Sequence record: PZ386967.1
From: a phage
Length of the DNA stretch: 64,000 nt
Reading direction: 5' to 3' (one strand)
Numbering within the stretch: position 1 is the stretch's first letter; each line of letters begins with the position of its first letter. Position numbers and translations under genes: made by a program. This document shows positions 5,900 to 47,607 of the stretch, piece after piece. The notes below the pieces were generated by a model, which was not told the DNA's origin, did no database searches, and saw only the letters and a program-made list of their open reading frames with translations.

Positions 5900-6178
5900 A
5901 TGGCTGGCGTATGGTGTGATGTCTTGCTGGTTCGTTACAGCGTAAATGGGTGTGTCCAAGTGCGTTCCGCCTTCTATCCAGTACCGTTCTCTTCCGGTGG
6001 CCTGACGGTTCAGCGAGTTCTCGATATTGAGGCAGAACTGAACAAAAAGTCTTTTGGTGTACAAGTCCTGGGGTACGATCTTCTGAATGAAATGATGGTT
6101 GAAGAAGACAAAGTTGAGACTGTCATTGGTCGTCAGGAGATGGAATCGTTAATCTCCAAATCGGAGGTCAAATCATGA
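5900..6178 (+). CDS. Hypothetical protein
   Basis: ORF tightly packed after upstream gene. Confidence 0.4.
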   Translation: MAGVWCDVLLVRYSVNGCVQVRSAFYPVPFSSGGLTVQRVLDIEAELNKKSFGVQVLGYDLLNEMMVEEDKVETVIGRQEMESLISKSEVKS

Positions 6179-6426
6179 GTCCCAACATGGCAATAATCTG
6201 GGTTGGTGAATCGTCAATGCGTTGTCCTCACAAGACGATCACCTTCTTGGACGATGAGCGCCTGGCCGAACAACGGGTTGAAGTCCGCGAAATGCAGGTT
6301 TCTTCAAAGGTGGTGAACGTTCCTGTGACTAATATTCAGACTTTTAAGCCTTGCGTCAGAGTGATTTGTGAACGCTGTGGATGTTATGGCACGATGACGA
6401 CTGAAGACGTGGCGAAAGGCTATTAA
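6175..6426 (+). CDS. Hypothetical Cys-containing small protein
   Basis: ORF with overlapping stop/start. Confidence 0.4.
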   Translation: MSPNMAIIWVGESSMRCPHKTITFLDDERLAEQRVEVREMQVSSKVVNVPVTNIQTFKPCVRVICERCGCYGTMTTEDVAKGY

Positions 6427-6516: not shown

Positions 6517-6795
6517 ATGAATCGTACTGAATTTGTTGCCCACATTGCTTCGACCCAGAACATCACCAAAGGCGAAGCGGAGAAAGTAGTGGCATCCTTT
6601 ATCAACGGTGTTAAGACTGCAGTTGCTGCAGGCGCATCTGTACAGCTGGTCGGCTTCGGTGCGTTCGAAGTGAAACACCAAGAAGCGCGTGAAGGCCGCA
6701 ACCCTCTGGACGGCCAGACCATTCAGATCGCGGCGAAAAACGTTGTGAAATTCAAAGTGGGCGAAGGTCTGAAGAACGCTGCCAACGGCAAGTAA
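6517..6795 (+). CDS. HU/IHF-family histone-like DNA-binding protein
   Basis: 92 aa; MNRTEFVAHIA, GFGAFEV, REGRNP, KFKVGEGLK are typical HU signatures. Confidence 0.85.
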   Translation: MNRTEFVAHIASTQNITKGEAEKVVASFINGVKTAVAAGASVQLVGFGAFEVKHQEAREGRNPLDGQTIQIAAKNVVKFKVGEGLKNAANGK

Positions 6796-6842
6796 TTCTA
6801 TCTGACGCGCGGCCAGGCTCTGCAATACAGGGCATGGCAAAG

Positions 6843-6876
6843 AGAAAGCCGGAGCATTGTACTCCGGCTTTTTCGT
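6843..6876 (+). terminator. Rho-independent terminator after HU gene
   Basis: AAGCCGGAG-cattgtact-CCGGCTTTTT; coordinates approximate. Confidence 0.5.
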
Positions 6877-6923
6877 TCTTGGGGATCGGGTAAACTATAG
6901 GCGAATCCCATAGGAGGAAGAAA

Positions 6924-8642
6924 GTGACAGCATTCAACCAATATACCAAGGCGCTTGACGGCGTCGGACCAGTCAGCATAGACCGCATCAAGTCTCTTGC
7001 CACTGAGTTCTTCCCGTATGACACCGCCAACCCCGGCCAGATGGAATGCATCGTTGAAGCCATTGATGCCCTTGTGAATAAGAAATTCAAACACGTGATC
7101 ATCGAGGCTCCGACTGGTGTAGGTAAATCCCTCATCGGCACTACCATCCATAATGTGCTTCGCCATTTGGTTCTTGAGCACAACCCGTATGGTCAGTTCC
7201 GCACGTCTATCACGACGCCGACCAAAGGTTTACAGGATCAGTATGCAGCAGAGAAAGCCGTGGCGATAGACATCCTGAAGGGCAAGAAGAACTACCGTTG
7301 CCACATCAGTCCCGACCTATACTACAACGCCATTCAGTGCCGTATGGCATGCCGTGATGGCCACTGTAGTAAGAATCGTTGCCCATATGTTCAGGCGCGT
7401 CGACAGTGGACCGACGTCTCCTCCCTGCGCTGCACCAACGCCGCCATGATGGTGGAGATGTGTACGACGATTTGTATGAAGCCGGAAAACCGTGCCGATA
7501 TGCTGATCCTTGACGAGTGTCATAAGATGCCCTCTACGCTCCTAGAGCATACTATCATGGAATACAACATAAAGGCTGTGGAAGGGTTGCTTACGATCCC
7601 CGAGGGAGTGCCTATCGTGGAGACCATCAAGGATATCATCATCCGCACAGAGAACTATGAATTGGGCAAGCTGTATTCCCTGTCTGGTGAGATGCATGCG
7701 ATATTTGATGAACTACACGGCAAGGTTGAAGCCCTGTTGGAAACTCTTGAAGAACTGGTAGAGGATGAGCGCCTGACTGAAGCCCAGGTGATGAAGCTGT
7801 CTGATATTATTGATAATCTTCACAACCTCAGTGACTACTGCGGTATCATGGGGCAGACCAACGCCAGCACTTTCATCGTACAGGAGAAGGACAAGGGTAT
7901 GATTCAGTTCAAGCCTGTCATCGCCTCTGATGTATCCCAGTTCGGTCTGTTCCGCAAGGGTGACTACCACGTTCACATGTCGGCGACCATCTGCGGGATT
8001 GACTCGTACGCCCGGTCACTGGGTATCCGCGAGGGTGAGTACCACAAGATACAGATCGGCAACCCTATCCCGATTGAGAACCGGAAAGTCAACTACATGC
8101 CCATCATGAAGATGACAGCGAACATGGGTGACTACGAGATGAAGAAGCTGGCTGAATACGTGGATGAAATTATCGCGTTCCACCCTGGGCAGTCTGGCAT
8201 CATTCACACAGTCAGTTATGACCGCGCCCTGGCTCTACAAAAGTTCAGTAAGTACCGGAATATGATTCACGTTCCTCGTACTCGTAAGGCTCTGATGGAC
8301 ATCATGGAAAACGCGTTCAGGACGAAGACGCCTTGTGTCATCGCCAGTCCGGCCATGGAAGAGGGGTATGACTTCAAAGGCGATTATAGTCGATTTCAGA
8401 TCTTGATCAAGGTGCCATACGATTACCTTGGTGATCCTCTGGTGGCCCACGTCAACAGTGTGGACCCATCGGCGTACTTCAGGATGGCGGTACTGCGTAT
8501 CGTTCAGATGTGTGGGCGTTCGGTCAGGGGTGTGAATGACTGGGCTGCGACGTACATCCTTGATTCTTCTTTTGAATCACTGATGATGCGCAACCCAGAG
8601 TTCTTCCCCGCTTGGTTCACTGATGCCGTGTTTGAGGTTTAG
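6924..8642 (+). CDS. SF2 DNA helicase, XPD/DinG (Rad3)-like with Cys cluster between Walker A and DECH box
   Basis: GTG start after AGGAGG; APTGVGKS Walker A, Cys-rich CHISPD..CRMACRDGHC..CPY insert, LILDECH box. Confidence 0.65.
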   Translation: MTAFNQYTKALDGVGPVSIDRIKSLATEFFPYDTANPGQMECIVEAIDALVNKKFKHVIIEAPTGVGKSLIGTTIHNVLRHLVLEHNPYGQFRTSITTPTKGLQDQYAAEKAVAIDILKGKKNYRCHISPDLYYNAIQCRMACRDGHCSKNRCPYVQARRQWTDVSSLRCTNAAMMVEMCTTICMKPENRADMLILDECHKMPSTLLEHTIMEYNIKAVEGLLTIPEGVPIVETIKDIIIRTENYELGKLYSLSGEMHAIFDELHGKVEALLETLEELVEDERLTEAQVMKLSDIIDNLHNLSDYCGIMGQTNASTFIVQEKDKGMIQFKPVIASDVSQFGLFRKGDYHVHMSATICGIDSYARSLGIREGEYHKIQIGNPIPIENRKVNYMPIMKMTANMGDYEMKKLAEYVDEIIAFHPGQSGIIHTVSYDRALALQKFSKYRNMIHVPRTRKALMDIMENAFRTKTPCVIASPAMEEGYDFKGDYSRFQILIKVPYDYLGDPLVAHVNSVDPSAYFRMAVLRIVQMCGRSVRGVNDWAATYILDSSFESLMMRNPEFFPAWFTDAVFEV

Positions 8643-9406
8643 TAACCCGCAACGAAGGACAGATGGCACTTGACATTCGGTTCCAACGACGTCACAGAAA
8701 CCGTCATATTGTCCGTATCTTGGCTGAAGTCAATGGTGGCGAGAGGTTTGGTCTGAATATGGTTGTAAACACTGTAGATCAGATCCTCGCCACGATACCC
8801 TACCTTCCCGTCGGTGTCTTGCCAATGACCCAGTGTCTCATCGTAGACATGCACTCTGAACTCGATCATATGGAAGAGTGCCTTGGGGATGTCCTTGAGT
8901 ACGCTGGTGCCAACCACGGGAATCTCTATGCTGGAATCATTGGAGTTCCCTTCATATACCGAAGCCCATGCAAAGGTGGGATCTCCCCCAGCAACAGGGG
9001 TTCGCTTCCAGTATTGGAATTCTGGGTTGCCTGAAGCGTTCTTCTGAAGTAGAATGACCTCACCACCTTTGAAGTTCGAAGTATCGATGTCGCCTCGCTG
9101 AAGTTCATCTGCTGGAGATCCAATAAATTTCCAGCCTTCGCGATCCAGTAAAGACTTATAATAGTCGGTGAACACGTTGCTGTCTTCTGCATCGTTGATG
9201 GCATCTTTGAGACCTTGGCCTGTCACCATCTCGTTGAGCTTCAACCACATGTTCTTGACAGCAGACGCTGCTGCGACTTGTCCAGCAGTCCCACCTGCAG
9301 CATAATCATAGATGATATCTTCTGACTTGATAGCATCATAGATAGAGAGGAGCAATTGCTCAATCTGCGGGGCGGTGAGACTGAAACGATATGCGCGGGG
9401 TGTCAT
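8639..9406 (-). CDS. Hypothetical late protein, possibly virion-associated
   Basis: Start trimmed to MTPRAY with GGAG-type RBS; TATAAATA late-promoter octamer on the minus strand about 35 nt upstream. Confidence 0.5.
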   Translation of the reverse strand: MTPRAYRFSLTAPQIEQLLLSIYDAIKSEDIIYDYAAGGTAGQVAAASAVKNMWLKLNEMVTGQGLKDAINDAEDSNVFTDYYKSLLDREGWKFIGSPADELQRGDIDTSNFKGGEVILLQKNASGNPEFQYWKRTPVAGGDPTFAWASVYEGNSNDSSIEIPVVGTSVLKDIPKALFHMIEFRVHVYDETLGHWQDTDGKVGYRGEDLIYSVYNHIQTKPLATIDFSQDTDNMTVSVTSLEPNVKCHLSFVAGY

Positions 9407-9441
9407 AGTTTCATTCCTCTTTCTATAAAACCAGTTTGGGA

Positions 9442-9449
9442 TATTTATA
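9442..9449 (-). promoter_or_regulatory. T4-type late promoter TATAAATA
   Basis: Exact octamer on the minus strand in the 45 bp gap between divergent genes; coordinates approximate. Confidence 0.45.
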
Positions 9450-9451
9450 TC

Positions 9452-9979
9452 ATGATAGAAATTTATTCTGACGGGGGTTCTAACCCGAAGACCAACCAGG
9501 CCGCAGGCTGGGCATTTGTCATCAGGCCAATAACGGGTATGCAATGGAAGGTGTTCTTCGGCCATCTACCTCCCCCGTCCACTAACAATATCGCCGAGTT
9601 GTTGGGTGTGACCAACGCATTGAAGCTACTGTGGGCATTCTCAGGAAAGGGTGAGCGCAGAATACCAAAGGCAACAATTTGGTCTGACAGCCAATATGCC
9701 ATCAAGAGTGTCACCGAATGGCGAGCGAAGTGGGAGTATCAGGGTTTCCCAGAAAAGAACGTTGAACTCATCAAAGATCTGTTCAGAATCTATGATCTCG
9801 TTTGTTCAATTTGTGATGTTGAACTAAAATGGGTTAAGGGTCATGCGGGGCACGAAGGCAACGAACTTGCCGATGACTGGGCCACAGCAGCCAAAAACGA
9901 CAGCAACTTCCTGATTGAGAATGACAAGATCTCAGTGAAGAAGGTTGTTGGATCTTTTGATGAATTTATCGGTATCTGA
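9452..9979 (+). CDS. rnhA: Ribonuclease HI (bacterial type)
   Basis: IYSDGGS, TNNIAELLG, IWSDSQYAI, WVKGHAGHEGNELADDWA match RNase H1 catalytic motifs. Confidence 0.85.
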   Translation: MIEIYSDGGSNPKTNQAAGWAFVIRPITGMQWKVFFGHLPPPSTNNIAELLGVTNALKLLWAFSGKGERRIPKATIWSDSQYAIKSVTEWRAKWEYQGFPEKNVELIKDLFRIYDLVCSICDVELKWVKGHAGHEGNELADDWATAAKNDSNFLIENDKISVKKVVGSFDEFIGI

Positions 9980-9990
9980 GGGCTTTCATA

Positions 9991-10782
9991 ATGGGAATGA
10001 ACTTCGTGGACAGAGGGGAGAATGTCGTCAAATATTTCACGGACGAAGACAACGAGCGTGTCATTAGTATCCTTCGTGATTGGATCCCCGCCCGCAAGAA
10101 AGCACTTGCTGAGGGCACCAGGCTTCCAAAGATCCCCAACTATGTTGCTCTGCAGGTCCAGCGCATCATCACCAAGATGAGTACCCGCTACAACTATCGC
10201 GACTATCCCTTCCGTGAAGACATGGTCTCTGAAGCAATAGTCAACATCCTGCGCTACCTCCACACCTTTGACGTCGAACACATTGGAAAGAAAGGGAAGA
10301 TCAACTTCTTCTCTTGGGTGACCATGTGCGCTGATCGATCATTCGCTCGTAAACTGAATATCGAAGAAGAACACACGTACATCAAATTGCGCTCATTTGA
10401 AGAGGCGGGTGGGTTCGCAGGCCTGGCAGACGATCCCGACTTCCAACAAGAGATCTTTGTTGACGCGACAGGGATTGGTATGGACTTCCGTGAGCGTATC
10501 GGTAACTTTGAGAACAAAAAGGACGCTCAAAGGCAGAAGGAGCGAGAGAAGGTGGAGGCGGCTCGTCTCGCAGAATCGAATAAAAAGATTGCGAAAGGCA
10601 TACTTCAATACATGGCGCAGGCTAAGAATACGGTAACAGCGCAGGCCGAAGACAATTCAGATCAGGACTTTGGCAAAACCCAATTCAATCTGGAAGATGA
10701 TATCTGTGCGATGGAACCAGATTGGGAAGCCCTCAAACAAAGATTAGAAGAACGGGAGAAAAAGAATAATGGCGATTGCTAA
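9991..10782 (+). CDS. 55: Late-transcription sigma factor, gp55-like
   Basis: Central region resembles T4 gp55 from memory; lies immediately upstream of gp47/gp46. Confidence 0.5.
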   Translation: MGMNFVDRGENVVKYFTDEDNERVISILRDWIPARKKALAEGTRLPKIPNYVALQVQRIITKMSTRYNYRDYPFREDMVSEAIVNILRYLHTFDVEHIGKKGKINFFSWVTMCADRSFARKLNIEEEHTYIKLRSFEEAGGFAGLADDPDFQQEIFVDATGIGMDFRERIGNFENKKDAQRQKEREKVEAARLAESNKKIAKGILQYMAQAKNTVTAQAEDNSDQDFGKTQFNLEDDICAMEPDWEALKQRLEEREKKNNGDC

Positions 10783-11884
10783 AATCGGCGATCTGCATAT
10801 CGGGAGCCGTAATGGTTCCCGATACGTTCGCGACTTCATCAAGAACTACCTCATCAATTATTTCATCCCTGAACTTGTCGCCTCCGACATCCATGAGGTC
10901 TGGCAGTTTGGTGACACATTTGACGTCCGCAAATTCATGTACGGGCGTGACAAGGACTGGTTGAAAGATGAGCTGACTCCGGCGCTGAAAGCTGCTGGGA
11001 TCAAGTGGAATGGTATTGTTGGCAACCACGACATCACCCTGGAAGAGTCTAACCGCATCAACTGGCCATCCTACCTGAACGAACTCGACCCAGATGTATA
11101 CTGCTATTATAGCGAACCGACCGAAGTGATGATCGAGGGTGTCAAGACTCTGCTCCTACCGTGGATCAACAAGGAGAACTATGATGCGTCTATTAAGGCG
11201 TTACAAGATACAGACGCCGAGTACTGTTTTGCGCATCTGGAGTTGGCAGGGTTCAAAATGTACCAGTCCTCTACTTGTGATCACGGTCAGATCGACGTTG
11301 CGTTGCTTTCCAAGTTTACCAGGGTCGACACGGGGCATTTCCATACCCGTTCGATGGAAGGTAACATTCAGTATCTTGGGACTCCGTATCACCTGAACTG
11401 GGAAGACTACAAAGATGGCACCAACCGTGGCTTCTATGTGGACGACATGCGCGGCGGTGAGGTATTCATTCCCAACAGCGAGCACCAGACGTTGTTCCGC
11501 TATGTGGAATATGATTACACCAAGTTGTCCTCAGACGATGAGGGTAACTGGATCGACCCGGAATGGTTGAACACAGGCTTGGGTATTGAAGGGCAAATCG
11601 TTAAGGTTATTGTACAGAATCGCGACAATGCTAAGCATTATGAAAAGTTCTGTGATGCAATGAAGCGATGCAAGTGTATTGACTACAACTTCATCGACCG
11701 GACTATTACCGTAGCGGCTGAGAAGGTTGAGGTCACCGAAGAGATGGTGGCAACCGACGCAGTGGAAGTCCTAAAGAAGGATATCCGCGCCGGGAACAAC
11801 ATCCAGCGCCCTGAAAACGTCTGCAAGCTAGCAGAGCACTTCTACAACGCTGCCCAACAACGCCTGAATACACTGGATGCATAA
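10769..11884 (+). CDS. 47: Mre11/SbcD-like recombination nuclease subunit (gp47)
   Basis: N-terminal GDLHIG and GNHD metallophosphoesterase motifs; adjacent to Rad50-like gene. Confidence 0.85.
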   Translation: MAIAKIGDLHIGSRNGSRYVRDFIKNYLINYFIPELVASDIHEVWQFGDTFDVRKFMYGRDKDWLKDELTPALKAAGIKWNGIVGNHDITLEESNRINWPSYLNELDPDVYCYYSEPTEVMIEGVKTLLLPWINKENYDASIKALQDTDAEYCFAHLELAGFKMYQSSTCDHGQIDVALLSKFTRVDTGHFHTRSMEGNIQYLGTPYHLNWEDYKDGTNRGFYVDDMRGGEVFIPNSEHQTLFRYVEYDYTKLSSDDEGNWIDPEWLNTGLGIEGQIVKVIVQNRDNAKHYEKFCDAMKRCKCIDYNFIDRTITVAAEKVEVTEEMVATDAVEVLKKDIRAGNNIQRPENVCKLAEHFYNAAQQRLNTLDA

Positions 11885-17145: not shown

Positions 17146-20130
17146 ATGTCAAAGCCAAGTTTCCTCCAGTTCATGCAGGAAAGAGATCAGTTGGACGAAG
17201 CGTTCAACTCCGCTCCGTATGAGCTGACCATGGGTAAGAAGAACGCAGGCGATGTGTTCTTCACCTTCGTCGACGAAGATGATAAGGAATACCGCATTCA
17301 GTTCTATACTCCTCAGGGACTGGGCAAGAGCGTTCGTCAGGTTTTCATCGGCCAGAAGCGCGGCTCCGTCTATCCTGACGCCATCGCTCGCTTCAAGAAC
17401 CCAATGCGCGTTATTGCTTCCATGATCGAAGCGACCAAACAATTCATGGCGACTCCTCTGGGCAAAACTATCGATGGCTATGCTGTCAACTTCTCGAAGA
17501 AAGCGCTGGATCGCGGTATGACCCTGATTCCTAAGATCATCCGCCAGTCCGGTCTGAAGCAGAAACTGAATGTCATGGACCTGACCTACGCGCCTGTCCC
17601 TGACCGTGGTTATGTGTGGCTAGTTCGTAAGGGCAAAGATCCGGCTCAGGTATTCGACGGTCCGAAGATGCAGGGTATCACCTGGGATGATCCAGACAAG
17701 GTCGGTGACGTTCCGGTTCAGAACAATACTCCGGATGTGGGTGTGTCATCTTCTGTTGATAATTCCAACGGATGGAAATTAACTTCAAACGGGGATCAGC
17801 CCATGTTGATATGGGCTGGTAAGGAGAGAGGCCGCACGAATACGGCAAATATCGCTCCCCACTACAATGAGCCGGGCGTGTATGTTGGCGCATACATGAA
17901 TGAGAAACCTGTGCGTGGGCAAAGTGCTGATTTCATTGCTCGTCAGTTGAAATTACCACAAGTCCCTATCAGTATCCTGAATGATTTCACCACGGCGTCC
18001 ACAAAATTTTGGAAAGGTTCTCAACAGAAATCTGCGCCTGTTGTGCCGGCAGGTTCGGACAGAAATAACCCAGCCAACATTATCGGTTCTGGAACTGCTG
18101 TTATTGATGCCAAACGGCTTGGTGCTCAGGAAGTAAACGTGGAACGATTCAAAAACGGCGTTCGCATGCGTTCTCGAAACGGTGACGTCGACATCAGTAT
18201 TTCTGACCCAGACTTTTCAAATGCAGCAAGTGCGGCTGATGCTGCCACAGCCTCTGTTGTGGTCAAGAACGGGCGTTACGAAGGTGCCATCAATTCAAAG
18301 CGCAAGATTGCCCGCACCTCGAACGAGCAGGGTACTGAATGGGATATCATCGGTGTCAACGGGGAAACCCTTGTCTCTATCAAGTTGAACAAAGTGTCTA
18401 AATCCACATCAGATTCGACCGAGGGTGCAACCAGTGTTGATCAATTACGTGACAGCGGTTTCATCGCTCGTGTTCTGGGTATCATTGATACCAACGTTGG
18501 GCTGGACACTTCTATTCTTCCTGGTGAAAACATCCGTCGCGTGGGCGCTGGTCGTTACACGACGGCAGGCGGGTTGGTTATCGTTGTCAACTTCACAAAC
18601 GTCCTCGCTGGTTTCGTTCAATACTCAGTTTTCAGCGAAATTGCTGAAGAGGAGAACGTGGCCAAAGGTAGCGCCCGTGACGTCGCCAAGGCGGTAATTG
18701 CGTCCATCTTTGAGGTTGCTAAGACCCAGTACACTGGCAAATGGGAAATTAGCGCAGTGCCAACAAGCGCTCCATATCCTATCAAAGCCATTCGCCGTTC
18801 TCGGGGCTGGGGTTATGTGGAAACCGCAAACTGGACTCTGACAGTGTCCGACGCTGTCCTGAATCGTGTGAAGCCAGGGAACACTGCTCTACTGGAACTC
18901 ATCAAAGAACCTCCGCGTGGCAAGCACCCGCTGGAAATCATCCCAGAGAAGGGCGACAAGACCCTGATGCTGAAAGATCGTATCACCGGGGCCATCTATG
19001 GTTCTATCGACCTGAATGCCCAAGGCGCTGATCTGGTCAACTCTGGAACCCTGAAGATACCAAGCAACGCCATGGTGTTTGGTGAGACTGTCAACGGTAT
19101 GTCCATTCGGTGGGATGTCAATTTCCCCGAAACGGGAAAATACGCCGGTACTTCTATGATAACCAACGTGACCTATTACTACGACAAAGGTAAAGTTGCA
19201 TTCACCCCAATTGTCTCTCAGAAAGGGCGTACCCTGAACAATCCGAAGACATATGAACTTCCTTTAAACAAAGATATGGTCCAGAGTGTGATTGATGAGA
19301 TTTCATCAAAAATGGTATATCTTTCCAGAAACCTCCAACAGTTGAAAAGTCAGTCATACAACCCAAACCAGGTGTTCTTGAACGATATAACCATCACGGA
19401 TAAAGGTGAAGTGATTTGGAATGATTACAACTTGTCTGACGGCAAAGTTACACAAATTATGCTGTCCATGATAAGCGCAGAAAATAAACGCCTGGAGAAA
19501 GTAGCAAACACGCCGGATATCAATATCACATTGCCCAAGAAACAAGCTGAAGTGGTAGAATTTATAAACCGGATGATCGATGTCGATCTCACCCCTTATG
19601 TGAGAACCCCCAAAAAACGTGATGTGGTATTATTTGACTCTTCTGAATTGTCGATAAACCAACTCAACAACATAGAACGCCTGGGAAGAGAAACAGGAAA
19701 ATGGTCTCTTCAGCCAAACGGTGGTATGGGTCATGCACTACTTCTGAAAAGCACGTCGCACAATCCGAAGGACGACCTTGCGGCATACGCCGACTCCATT
19801 CGCGACAACGCACCAAAAGGTCGCGACCTGGATTGGCAGATCTATGCAAGCCGTGATGGTCAGACTCTGAACGTGGACTGGGATATCACCTTCCGCCGCA
19901 ACACAACTGAAGGGGCATATCGCGAGTTCAAAGCTCAGATTGACCGCGCCAACCAGTACCTGCAGACACTGTACCGGGATGCGAAGTCCAAGGGTTACAA
20001 CCCGACTGAACCAAACCTGATGACTCTGGATAGCGCCCAGCAGTCTGACCAGTGGGCACGAGACTACGGGGAAGGCGCATACAGCGAGTACGAGCAGTCC
20101 CTGGGTGGCAACATGCAGATTAAGATCTGA
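17146..20130 (+). CDS. Large hypothetical protein (994 aa)
   Basis: Long uninterrupted ORF; no recognisable catalytic motif. Confidence 0.6.
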   Translation: MSKPSFLQFMQERDQLDEAFNSAPYELTMGKKNAGDVFFTFVDEDDKEYRIQFYTPQGLGKSVRQVFIGQKRGSVYPDAIARFKNPMRVIASMIEATKQFMATPLGKTIDGYAVNFSKKALDRGMTLIPKIIRQSGLKQKLNVMDLTYAPVPDRGYVWLVRKGKDPAQVFDGPKMQGITWDDPDKVGDVPVQNNTPDVGVSSSVDNSNGWKLTSNGDQPMLIWAGKERGRTNTANIAPHYNEPGVYVGAYMNEKPVRGQSADFIARQLKLPQVPISILNDFTTASTKFWKGSQQKSAPVVPAGSDRNNPANIIGSGTAVIDAKRLGAQEVNVERFKNGVRMRSRNGDVDISISDPDFSNAASAADAATASVVVKNGRYEGAINSKRKIARTSNEQGTEWDIIGVNGETLVSIKLNKVSKSTSDSTEGATSVDQLRDSGFIARVLGIIDTNVGLDTSILPGENIRRVGAGRYTTAGGLVIVVNFTNVLAGFVQYSVFSEIAEEENVAKGSARDVAKAVIASIFEVAKTQYTGKWEISAVPTSAPYPIKAIRRSRGWGYVETANWTLTVSDAVLNRVKPGNTALLELIKEPPRGKHPLEIIPEKGDKTLMLKDRITGAIYGSIDLNAQGADLVNSGTLKIPSNAMVFGETVNGMSIRWDVNFPETGKYAGTSMITNVTYYYDKGKVAFTPIVSQKGRTLNNPKTYELPLNKDMVQSVIDEISSKMVYLSRNLQQLKSQSYNPNQVFLNDITITDKGEVIWNDYNLSDGKVTQIMLSMISAENKRLEKVANTPDINITLPKKQAEVVEFINRMIDVDLTPYVRTPKKRDVVLFDSSELSINQLNNIERLGRETGKWSLQPNGGMGHALLLKSTSHNPKDDLAAYADSIRDNAPKGRDLDWQIYASRDGQTLNVDWDITFRRNTTEGAYREFKAQIDRANQYLQTLYRDAKSKGYNPTEPNLMTLDSAQQSDQWARDYGEGAYSEYEQSLGGNMQIKI

Positions 20131-46182: not shown

Positions 46183-47607
46183 ATGTTACTCGAATCTGTC
46201 GTGCTTTCACAGTTGATTTACAATGAAGATTACCAAAGAAAGATCCTGCCGTACCTGAAAGCCGATTATTTTGACAACGAAGGCGAAAAGGTCATCTTTG
46301 GCCTGATTGACAGTTATACCTCAGAGTACAATGCCCGCCCGTCTGTCGAAGCACTATCTATCATTCTTGAACGGACAAAGTTGAACGAATATGTGTTTGA
46401 CCAGGCAGTGACTGCCCTGGAGAACATCAACGACAACACCTTCAATGAAGAGTGGCTGGCGAAGGAAACCGAGGCTTGGGCGCGGCAAAAAGCCGTACAC
46501 AACGCAATCAAGACCGCCGTCAACATCTACGGTGACGAGAAGCGCAAGGACGAGATGAACAACATCCCGACCATGTTGCAGGAAGCCCTGGCTATCCGGT
46601 TTGATTCATACCTCGGTCACATCTATTGGGAGATGGCGGCAGAGCAGTATGACCACATGAACTCCAACGAGGCCAAGATCCCGTTCGCAGTTGAGATCTT
46701 CAATAAGGCGACACGTGGTGGCGTTGGTAAGAAGACACTGAACATCGTAACAGGTGCGATCAACGCAGGTAAGACCACAACGCTGATTGACCTGACCGCA
46801 GGGTACTCGGAGCAGGGGCTGAACGTCTTTGTCTTCACCCTTGAAGTGGCCGAGAACGTCTGGCGACACCGTCTTGATGCCCGTATCATGCGTCGCGACT
46901 TTGAGTCTTTAGAGAAACTCACAAGGCACGAGTATATTGCAACGATAGAGAAGCTCCGCAGTCGCCAAGATGGTGCGCCCAAGGGTGATATCGTCATCAA
47001 GGAATATCCTTCTGGTACTGGACACACGGGTTTATTCCGCCGCGATATCCTTGAGTACATCCAGGCAACAGGTCGTGCTCCTGATGTTATCGTTATTGAC
47101 TATCTTGGCGAAGCTGCTTCCTCGCGCCTGCCTTCCCACCTGATGCAGAACACGAACGTCTATTACACGTCTGTGGCTCGTGAGTTTCGTGCGCTGGGAT
47201 TTGAGTTTGATGTCCCTGTATGGACTGGTATGCAGTTCAATCGTGAGAATCAGAATAGCACTGATGGTGGAATCAGTGATCTGGCAGATGCTATCGGTAT
47301 TCCGAAGGTGGCCGACTTCATCATGGCATTCTATGCTCCTGACGAACTGGCGGCGGTCAAGAAAGCCCGAGCCTCAATACTCAAGAACCGTTATGCCAAC
47401 AAGCAGAAGCTGAAGTCATTCCTGTTTGGTATGGACCAAGACAAACAGATCCTGTTTGACCTGGACTGGAACGAAGTTAAGAAGGATCTGACTGAGGCTG
47501 AGGCCAAATATGTCGAAAACGTACACATCAAACATGACCTCAACAAGTCCGGGGCTGCTGCCAGCGATGAGCAGAAAGCCCAAACAGTCAATAATTGGAA
47601 ATTCTAG
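46183..47607 (+). CDS. 41: Replicative DnaB-like helicase gp41
   Basis: Walker A GAINAGKTT; strong collinearity with T4 gp41 including C-terminal NWKF/ELKF ending. Confidence 0.85.
   Translation: MLLESVVLSQLIYNEDYQRKILPYLKADYFDNEGEKVIFGLIDSYTSEYNARPSVEALSIILERTKLNEYVFDQAVTALENINDNTFNEEWLAKETEAWARQKAVHNAIKTAVNIYGDEKRKDEMNNIPTMLQEALAIRFDSYLGHIYWEMAAEQYDHMNSNEAKIPFAVEIFNKATRGGVGKKTLNIVTGAINAGKTTTLIDLTAGYSEQGLNVFVFTLEVAENVWRHRLDARIMRRDFESLEKLTRHEYIATIEKLRSRQDGAPKGDIVIKEYPSGTGHTGLFRRDILEYIQATGRAPDVIVIDYLGEAASSRLPSHLMQNTNVYYTSVAREFRALGFEFDVPVWTGMQFNRENQNSTDGGISDLADAIGIPKVADFIMAFYAPDELAAVKKARASILKNRYANKQKLKSFLFGMDQDKQILFDLDWNEVKKDLTEAEAKYVENVHIKHDLNKSGAAASDEQKAQTVNNWKF

Follow-up and report, generated by a model that had tools for sequence, protein, structure and literature searches.

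The gene at positions 6924..8642 (+ strand) of a 64,000-nucleotide stretch of phage DNA (sequence record PZ386967.1, referred to below as the window) encodes a compact superfamily 2 (SF2) DNA helicase of the XPD/DinG/Rad3 family. The coding sequence, taken from the list of open reading frames (ORFs), opens with a GTG codon, specifies 572 amino acids and belongs to PHROG 2488; the same 1719-nt coding sequence is annotated in relatives. Its product is an uncharacterised viral subfamily member of this known helicase family, with a small and strongly conserved cysteine domain between the Walker A motif and motif II. It is probable that the protein is an XPD/DinG helicase with a probable iron-sulfur (Fe-S) domain, acting as a 5′-3′ accessory helicase in the niche which in phage T4 is held by Dda.

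Family membership was apparent from sequence, profile and fold comparisons. The Pfam search returned Helicase_C_2 (PF13307) at 3.8e-12, above its cutoff, together with the generic ResIII and DEAD models, and Helicase_C_2 was recognised in all 49 members of an alignment that included homologs down to 36% identity, with a mean column identity of 42%. E. coli DinG ranked first in a phmmer search of the PDB sequences, and was again first, at 1.8e-19, when the 49-homolog profile was used, a search which also found F. magna DinG, Thermoplasma acidophilum XPD (TaXPD), yeast Rad3, human XPD, FANCJ and CHL1. The profile alignments to TaXPD and F. magna DinG ran unbroken from motif II through the insertion corresponding to the Arch domain and up to motif VI, while the hhalign comparison between E. 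coli DinG and the family profile gave a probability of 99.3% over 512 columns (query 23-543, DinG 20-678). The AlphaFold2 model computed from the 49-sequence alignment showed a mean pLDDT of 89.6 and a pTM of 0.88, with no segment below 50. When this model was compared with the PDB by Foldseek, ranks 1-44 were all XPD, DinG, CasDinG or Hna structures and the first match outside the family appeared at rank 45; the best matches were E. coli DinG (1.8e-26), F. magna DinG, TaXPD, CasDinG and human XPD, and the TM-scores reached 0.67. The overall fold is nearest to that of the XPD/DinG/Rad3 members. A preliminary description of the sequence had placed the protein in this group and had proposed a profile search as one of the ways to check it; the recovery of the XPD/DinG family by that search, and by the fold comparison, agrees with the placement.

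The protein is composed of two RecA-like motor domains, the first of which carries two insertions, namely the cysteine domain (residues ~122-167) and the Arch (residues ~201-345). For the family statistics 262 collected proteins were aligned to the family profile, 256 of which cover the cysteine region; in these 256 members the helicase ATPase motifs are all intact and invariant. The elements that follow are all encoded on the + strand. The Q motif region FPY..NPGQ (residues 30-39; 7011..7040), in which F30, G38 and Q39 are invariant in the 49-sequence alignment, aligns with the FPYK-AYPSQ element of FANCJ. Motif I, or Walker A, was read from the translation and from the profile alignments as APTGVGKS (residues 62-69; 7107..7130), and its lysine K68 occurs in 254 of the 256 members. 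The core of the Fe-S-type domain (residues 126-159; 7299..7400) lies within RecA domain 1, after motif Ia and before motif II, the place that it has in the family, which it also resembles in sequence. It is followed by motif II, DECH (residues 197-200; 7512..7523), with D, E and H invariant and with position 199 occupied by C in 172 and by A in 66 of the 256 proteins. The Arch-type insertion (residues 201-345; 7524..7958), comprising five helices and a β-hairpin, lies between motifs II and III, as is typical of the family. The motif III region HMSATIC (residues 351-357; 7974..7994) was located by the 49-sequence alignment and by the profile alignment. The part of RecA domain 2 covered by Helicase_C_2 (residues 464-565; 8313..8618), delimited by Pfam and by the alignments, holds motif V (SPAMEEGYD) and motif VI (Q528..G531 R532..R535). 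The succession of Walker A, cysteine insertion and DECH that had been reported from the first inspection is therefore present, at residues 62-69, 126-153 and 197-200.

The cysteines between Walker A and motif II are C126, C139, C143, C148 and C153, followed by C170, C180 and C184, and the domain core follows the pattern C126-x12-C139-x3-C143-x4-C148-x4-C153-P-Y155-xxx-R159. The insertion had been described as containing four cysteines; this holds for the invariant ones (C126, C139, C148 and C153 in the 49-sequence alignment), although the cluster region of this protein has five, C143 being found in only 18 of the 49 homologs. At the scale of the larger set, at least four cysteines are present between the C126 and C153 columns in 249 of the 256 members, the median length of this segment being 28 residues; C126 is conserved in 256 of 256 and C153 in 255 of 256, with the middle two cysteines shifting slightly in register. 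Such conservation far exceeds chance expectation. By hhalign, C126, C143, C148 and C153 are paired with C120, C194, C199 and C205 of E. coli DinG, which we take to be the four cluster ligands of that enzyme, and the sequence GKKNYRC126 is set on GRGRYVC120 of DinG. The second ligand may be either C139, which is invariant in the family, or C143, which is the equivalent of the DinG residue.

The fourth cysteine is part of the sequence C153-P-Y155-V-Q-A-R159, where position 155 is Y or F in 255 and position 159 is R or K in 236 of the 256 members. This CPYxxAR motif aligns with CPFFVAR of DinG, CPYYTAR of FANCJ and CPYFIVR of Rad3, and presumably corresponds to the C190-P-Y192...R196 pocket of human XPD. 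Even when the cysteine segment alone was compared with the PDB, DinG was found, at 0.011 with the single sequence and at 1.9e-4 with the segment profile, and Rad3 appeared only at E = 1.2. The cysteine domain is a miniaturised domain of the XPD/DinG type, which most likely binds a [4Fe-4S] cluster through C126, C139 or C143, C148 and C153. Both the [4Fe-4S] nature of the metal centre and the 5′-3′ polarity are suggested by analogy with the XPD/DinG family.

The best sequence, profile and fold matches among the known systems were the DinG proteins of E. coli (PDB 6FWR/6FWS) and F. magna (9KQH). With these the phage helicase shares the order RecA1, Fe-S insertion, DExH, Arch, RecA2 and the CP[YF]xxAR motif. 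It differs from them in its low identity (16-21%), in its length (572 residues compared to 716-748 in DinG), in lacking the DinG insertion of ~70 residues between the first and the second ligand, and in being phage-encoded and not a gene of the SOS regulon. The four-domain architecture is also that of the XPD/Rad3 enzymes, represented by T. acidophilum XPD (4A15/9P55) and by human XPD in TFIIH, with TM-scores of 0.59-0.67, but here the identity is 12-19%, there is no TFIIH context and the Fe-S domain of the phage protein is much smaller.

The comparison with T4 had been summarised beforehand in two statements, the first being that T4 has no helicase of this type and the second that the gene is present instead of a helicase of the UvsW/Dda type. 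The complete T4 genome (168,903 bp) was reassembled from five stretches and searched. With the helicase as query, tblastn against the whole genome gave a best E of 4 and no homolog, which supports the first statement; the family profile touched the dda frame alone, weakly (21.8 bits) and probably at the P-loop, and no homology of the helicase to T4 Dda, UvsW or gp41 was found. The second statement was correct for Dda and not for UvsW. The reference used for this purpose was phage AV101, classed as Ackermannviridae; Aglimvirinae, whose helicase gene is 98% identical to that in the window. Searched by tblastn with T4 Dda, neither the window nor the complete AV101 genome gave a homolog, the best match (E = 0.9) being a PhoH P-loop. 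A UvsW homolog is annotated in AV101, with 33.5% identity to T4 UvsW over 501 residues (E 8e-75), and its gene maps beyond the genome section that the window represents. A gp41-type replicative helicase (46183..47607, + strand) is encoded within the window, where tblastn with T4 gp41 found it at 32% identity and E 1.4e-72. Among the Salmonella phages of the phage collection, 49 have Dda matches against 165 with the 6924-8642 helicase, which fits an absence of Dda from the Ackermannviridae.

If it works as XPD and DinG do, the helicase would load on single-stranded DNA and translocate in the 5′ to 3′ direction with ATP. The duplex would be split at the wedge formed by the Fe-S domain, with the translocated strand threading between the Fe-S and Arch domains. 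Such an enzyme could assist replication, recombination and repair as an accessory helicase alongside gp41 and UvsW, its substrates being forks, D-loops or R-loops, and could clear obstacles. In T4 the 5′-3′ accessory niche is held by Dda, and because the present lineage is without Dda the XPD/DinG helicase may fill it; the most likely biological role is therefore that of a 5′-3′ accessory helicase in the Dda niche. The likeness to Dda would concern this proposed niche, i.e., that of a monomeric 5′-3′ accessory helicase of a T4-type replisome, and the equivalence is inferred only, as Dda is an SF1B helicase of unrelated superfamily and fold and has no sequence similarity to the phage protein.

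The window stems from a ViI-like phage of the Ackermannviridae, and the gene is widespread. Megablast found it at full length in 135 phage records, the best being Escherichia phage LHE287 (99.1%), with ZQ1, AV101, Maynard, Marshall, Ag3 and the Dickeya limestoneviruses among the others; in these records it is labelled "DNA helicase", "ATP-dependent helicase" or "hypothetical protein", and the match to PHROG 2488 ("DNA helicase") is at 1e-259. By tblastn the family was detected in 498 phage records, which include all the ViI-like phages and extend to phages of Vibrio, Aeromonas, Acinetobacter, Rhizobium, Serratia, Delftia (PhiW-14), Yersinia (YerA41) and Prevotella (Lak) and to haloarchaeal viruses. 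An exhaustive profile search of 1.84 billion representatives returned 4,339 clusters (50% identity) at E <= 1e-30, and nearly all of the best 150 of these are 500-620 residues long; like viral models with TM values of 0.7-0.8 are held in BFVD. Across the Salmonella, Klebsiella, Escherichia, Dickeya and Serratia phages the record counts for the helicase match those for another family-wide gene, the 5-hydroxymethyldeoxyuridine (5-hmdU) DNA kinase, 5-HMUDK, which fits a core gene. The helicase is a core gene of the Ackermannviridae, within a very large and mostly viral clade.

The annotated phage relatives in PHROG 2488 belong to the same family, at 27-99% identity over the full length, and include the "Rad3-related DNA helicase" of the haloviruses HRTV/HCTV as well as proteins of Rhizobium, Vibrio and Acinetobacter phages and of PhiW-14. 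There is no difference in kind between these and the 6924-8642 product, which is the ortholog of Aglimvirinae type. The family assignment is thus not new, the helicase label being present in well over 100 genomes and the term "Rad3-related" in haloviruses and in JGI records. The CBA120 genome paper merely lists "helicases" among the T4-like replication genes, and a description of the Fe-S domain of a phage member was not found in the searchable literature. Near-identical or related helicases are also deposited under Escherichia coli and under a Methanosarcina metagenome-assembled genome, on contigs of 20.7 and 9.7 kb, which are probably phage contigs within cellular assemblies.

Several points weigh against an Fe-S helicase of this family acting in the place of Dda. 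The cysteines span 28 residues compared to 85 in DinG (C120 to C205), and the family-invariant C139 is not the cysteine aligned with C194 of DinG. The cluster has been lost in CasDinG and in S. aureus DinG, so that the fold gives no guarantee of Fe-S binding. DEAD_2, the XPD-specific N-terminal model of Pfam, matches only 6 of the 49 members and HBB only one; this divergence of the N-terminal half at the Pfam level probably explains the bare "DNA helicase" label in the databases. The matches to the NCBIfam models for DinG, YoaA, DinG-related proteins and rad3 are partial and far below the curated cutoffs, with 66 bits against a cutoff of 598 for the DinG equivalog NF008729, 56 against 680 for YoaA (NF053712) and 23 against 247 for Rad3/XPD (TIGR00604). 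These scores indicate that the helicase is no ortholog of any characterised enzyme, and by sequence its relation to DinG/YoaA appears to be that of a distant paralog. The absence of Dda refers only to the window and to AV101, and experimental work on any phage member was not found in the searchable literature.

Concerning the role, the protein might have as its main job, in the manner of DinG, the unwinding of R-loops or RNA-DNA hybrids at origins or where replication and transcription collide, in concert with RNase HI, and not the general substitution of Dda. E. coli DinG unwinds R-loops and D-loops, and DinG proteins are the nearest solved relatives of the phage helicase by both sequence and fold. 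Moreover, a bacterial-type RNase HI gene (9452..9979, + strand; PF00075 at 7e-25), not of the FEN type of T4 rnh, is situated two genes downstream. The succession helicase, opposite-strand gene, RNase H, gp55, gp47, gp46 has been preserved in a Vibrio phage with 45-47% identity in the helicase, but not in PhiW-14, in an Acinetobacter phage or in two metagenomic contigs, so that the linkage to RNase HI may reflect shared ancestry only. In addition UvsW, the R-loop unwinder of T4, is kept in AV101. We regard a main function of this kind as possible but doubtful; an R-loop/D-loop role coupled to RNase HI is in any case an alternative compatible with that of an accessory helicase.

As regards the metal, the four cysteines could instead bind a structural zinc, in a knuckle or ribbon that would have replaced the ancestral cluster while the XPD/DinG fold was kept. 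The compact ligand span C-x12-C-x8-C-x4-C, with its median of 28 residues, is nearer to the size of a zinc finger than to that of the XPD/DinG Fe-S domains, and the segment profile brushes against CCCH zinc fingers (C3H1 domain, Roquin, TTP) at E values of 0.3-5. These matches are not significant, and the histidine ligand of the CCCH fingers is absent, whereas the segment profile matches DinG and the full profile sets the cysteines on the DinG ligand positions, with the CPYxxAR signature of XPD, DinG and FANCJ beside the fourth ligand. A simple zinc finger lacking an arch or Fe-S domain, the outcome named in the preliminary description as speaking against its proposal, was not found in this protein. 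Since the metal cannot be read from the sequence, zinc stays a minority possibility, and an unlikely one compared to the [4Fe-4S] cluster.

A helicase dedicated to thymidine hypermodification, opening DNA for the 5-hmdU DNA kinase pathway or unwinding bulky modified DNA, appears very improbable. In PhiW-14 a single small gene separates the homolog (39% identity) from a PF18723 5-HMUDK gene downstream of it (PhiW-14 stretch 8001-10982), the Ackermannviridae also encode 5-HMUDK (PF18723 at 2.6e-79), and helicase homologs occur in YerA41, which we take to be a modified-DNA phage. In AV101, however, the 5-HMUDK gene (105024-106223) is ~17 kb from the helicase. Moreover, in tallies by organism name the 5-HMUDK matches include Microbacterium, Pseudomonas and Bacillus phages, absent from the helicase top ten, and the helicase matches include Rhizobium, haloarchaeal and Prevotella phages, absent from the top ten of 5-HMUDK. 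The two tallies overlap only in the Ackermannviridae and the Vibrio lineage, so that the co-occurrence tracks phage lineage and not function, and the link was rejected as a general rule on account of the gap in AV101 and of this divergence outside one lineage.

A CasDinG-like helicase of type IV CRISPR, or another helicase of defence or counter-defence, was rejected as the least credible of all: CasDinG (Csf4) has the same fold family and a similar size (about 600 residues), and one PADLOC model, PDLC01439 (typeIV_DinG, "CAS-IV-A associated"), matches strongly and at full length (2.8e-51), but the canonical Csf4 models barely match (PADLOC Csf4_0_IVA at 8.8e-7, covering only residues 36-111; NCBIfam TIGR03117 at E = 0.054), the CasDinG structures rank below DinG and XPD in Foldseek with 11-12% identity, the CasDinG FeS domain is vestigial and cysteine-less according to PMC10450177 while the four cysteines are kept in the phage family, and the neighbours are replication genes, with nothing CRISPR-related among the annotated or profile-matched genes. 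The match to PDLC01439 has a practical side, in that annotators of defence systems could wrongly call type IV CRISPR components in phage sequence.

The helicase sits in a replication and recombination block which includes HU, RNase HI, gp55, which is the late sigma factor, and the SbcCD-like pair gp47/gp46. Directly upstream is the gene of an HU-like DNA-binding protein (6517..6795, + strand; PF00216 at 5.7e-29), annotated as HU-beta in AV101. On the opposite strand, and convergent with the helicase, is a gene at 8639-9406 (- strand) that matches PHROG 3833 at 1e-159 and overlaps the helicase stop codon by 4 nt. It is listed mechanically as ORF 8639-9565, the PHROG match starting from residue 54 of that ORF, which is 53 codons too long when compared with the AV101 annotation; in some relatives this gene is labelled a structural, virion or baseplate protein. 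The PHROG 3833 and RNase HI genes are divergent, with ~45 bp between their starts, and a compact divergent promoter region is thus expected. The SbcD/gp47 homolog (10769-11884, + strand; PHROG 100 at 3e-106) is called "cell division trigger factor" in AV101 (record 83833-84948), which is likely a misannotation. The conserved neighbours were dropped as a functional clue, since only the Ackermannviridae and the Vibrio lineage share their order.

Some other genes of the window were observed in passing. Just 5′ of the HU gene, at 5900-6426 (+ strand), there are two small conserved genes, one of which encodes DUF7425 (PF24200 at 1.6e-47) and the other an 83-residue cysteine-rich protein (PHROG 31251) with five cysteines, four of them clustered near the C-terminus. 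At 17146-20130 (+ strand) a protein of 994 residues is encoded (PHROG 3867), of which the AV101 version is shorter (2721 nt); a short internal stretch of it resembles an internal head protein (PHROG 7673 at 1e-9).

Upstream of the helicase, a Shine-Dalgarno sequence AGGAGG (6912..6917, + strand) was read six bases 5′ of the GTG codon. A terminator-like hairpin with a GC-rich stem (AGCCGGAG/CUCCGGCU) and a subsequent U run is located 3′ of the HU-like gene (6842..6874, + strand); its predicted RNA fold has an energy of -21.6 kcal/mol with z = -3.2. It is flanked by an A-tract and a U-tract, and it was missed by a simple terminator scan. The promoter scan revealed no sigma-70-like promoter between the hairpin and the helicase start codon, and the total number of sites found upstream did not exceed the count in shuffled sequence.

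Fe-S helicases such as XPD, FANCJ and DinG are well studied in cells and barely in phages. A viral helicase of 572 residues with a tiny cysteine domain would be a convenient minimal model for the function of the cluster domain as a strand-separation wedge. The gene content shows an exchange of accessory helicases in replication modules of the T4 type, Dda being absent and an XPD/DinG type present, with gp41 and UvsW retained. A bolder proposal, which we put forward tentatively and consider on balance unlikely, is that the protein is the prototype of a very large viral clade of minimal XPD/DinG helicases, whose Fe-S wedge would be the smallest known (ligands spanning ~28 residues) and which would have displaced Dda as the 5′-3′ accessory helicase in T4-type replisomes and made replication dependent on Fe-S assembly by the host. 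If this were true, the replication of the therapeutically used family of ViI-like phages, the Ackermannviridae, would be tied to the iron-sulfur biogenesis of their hosts.

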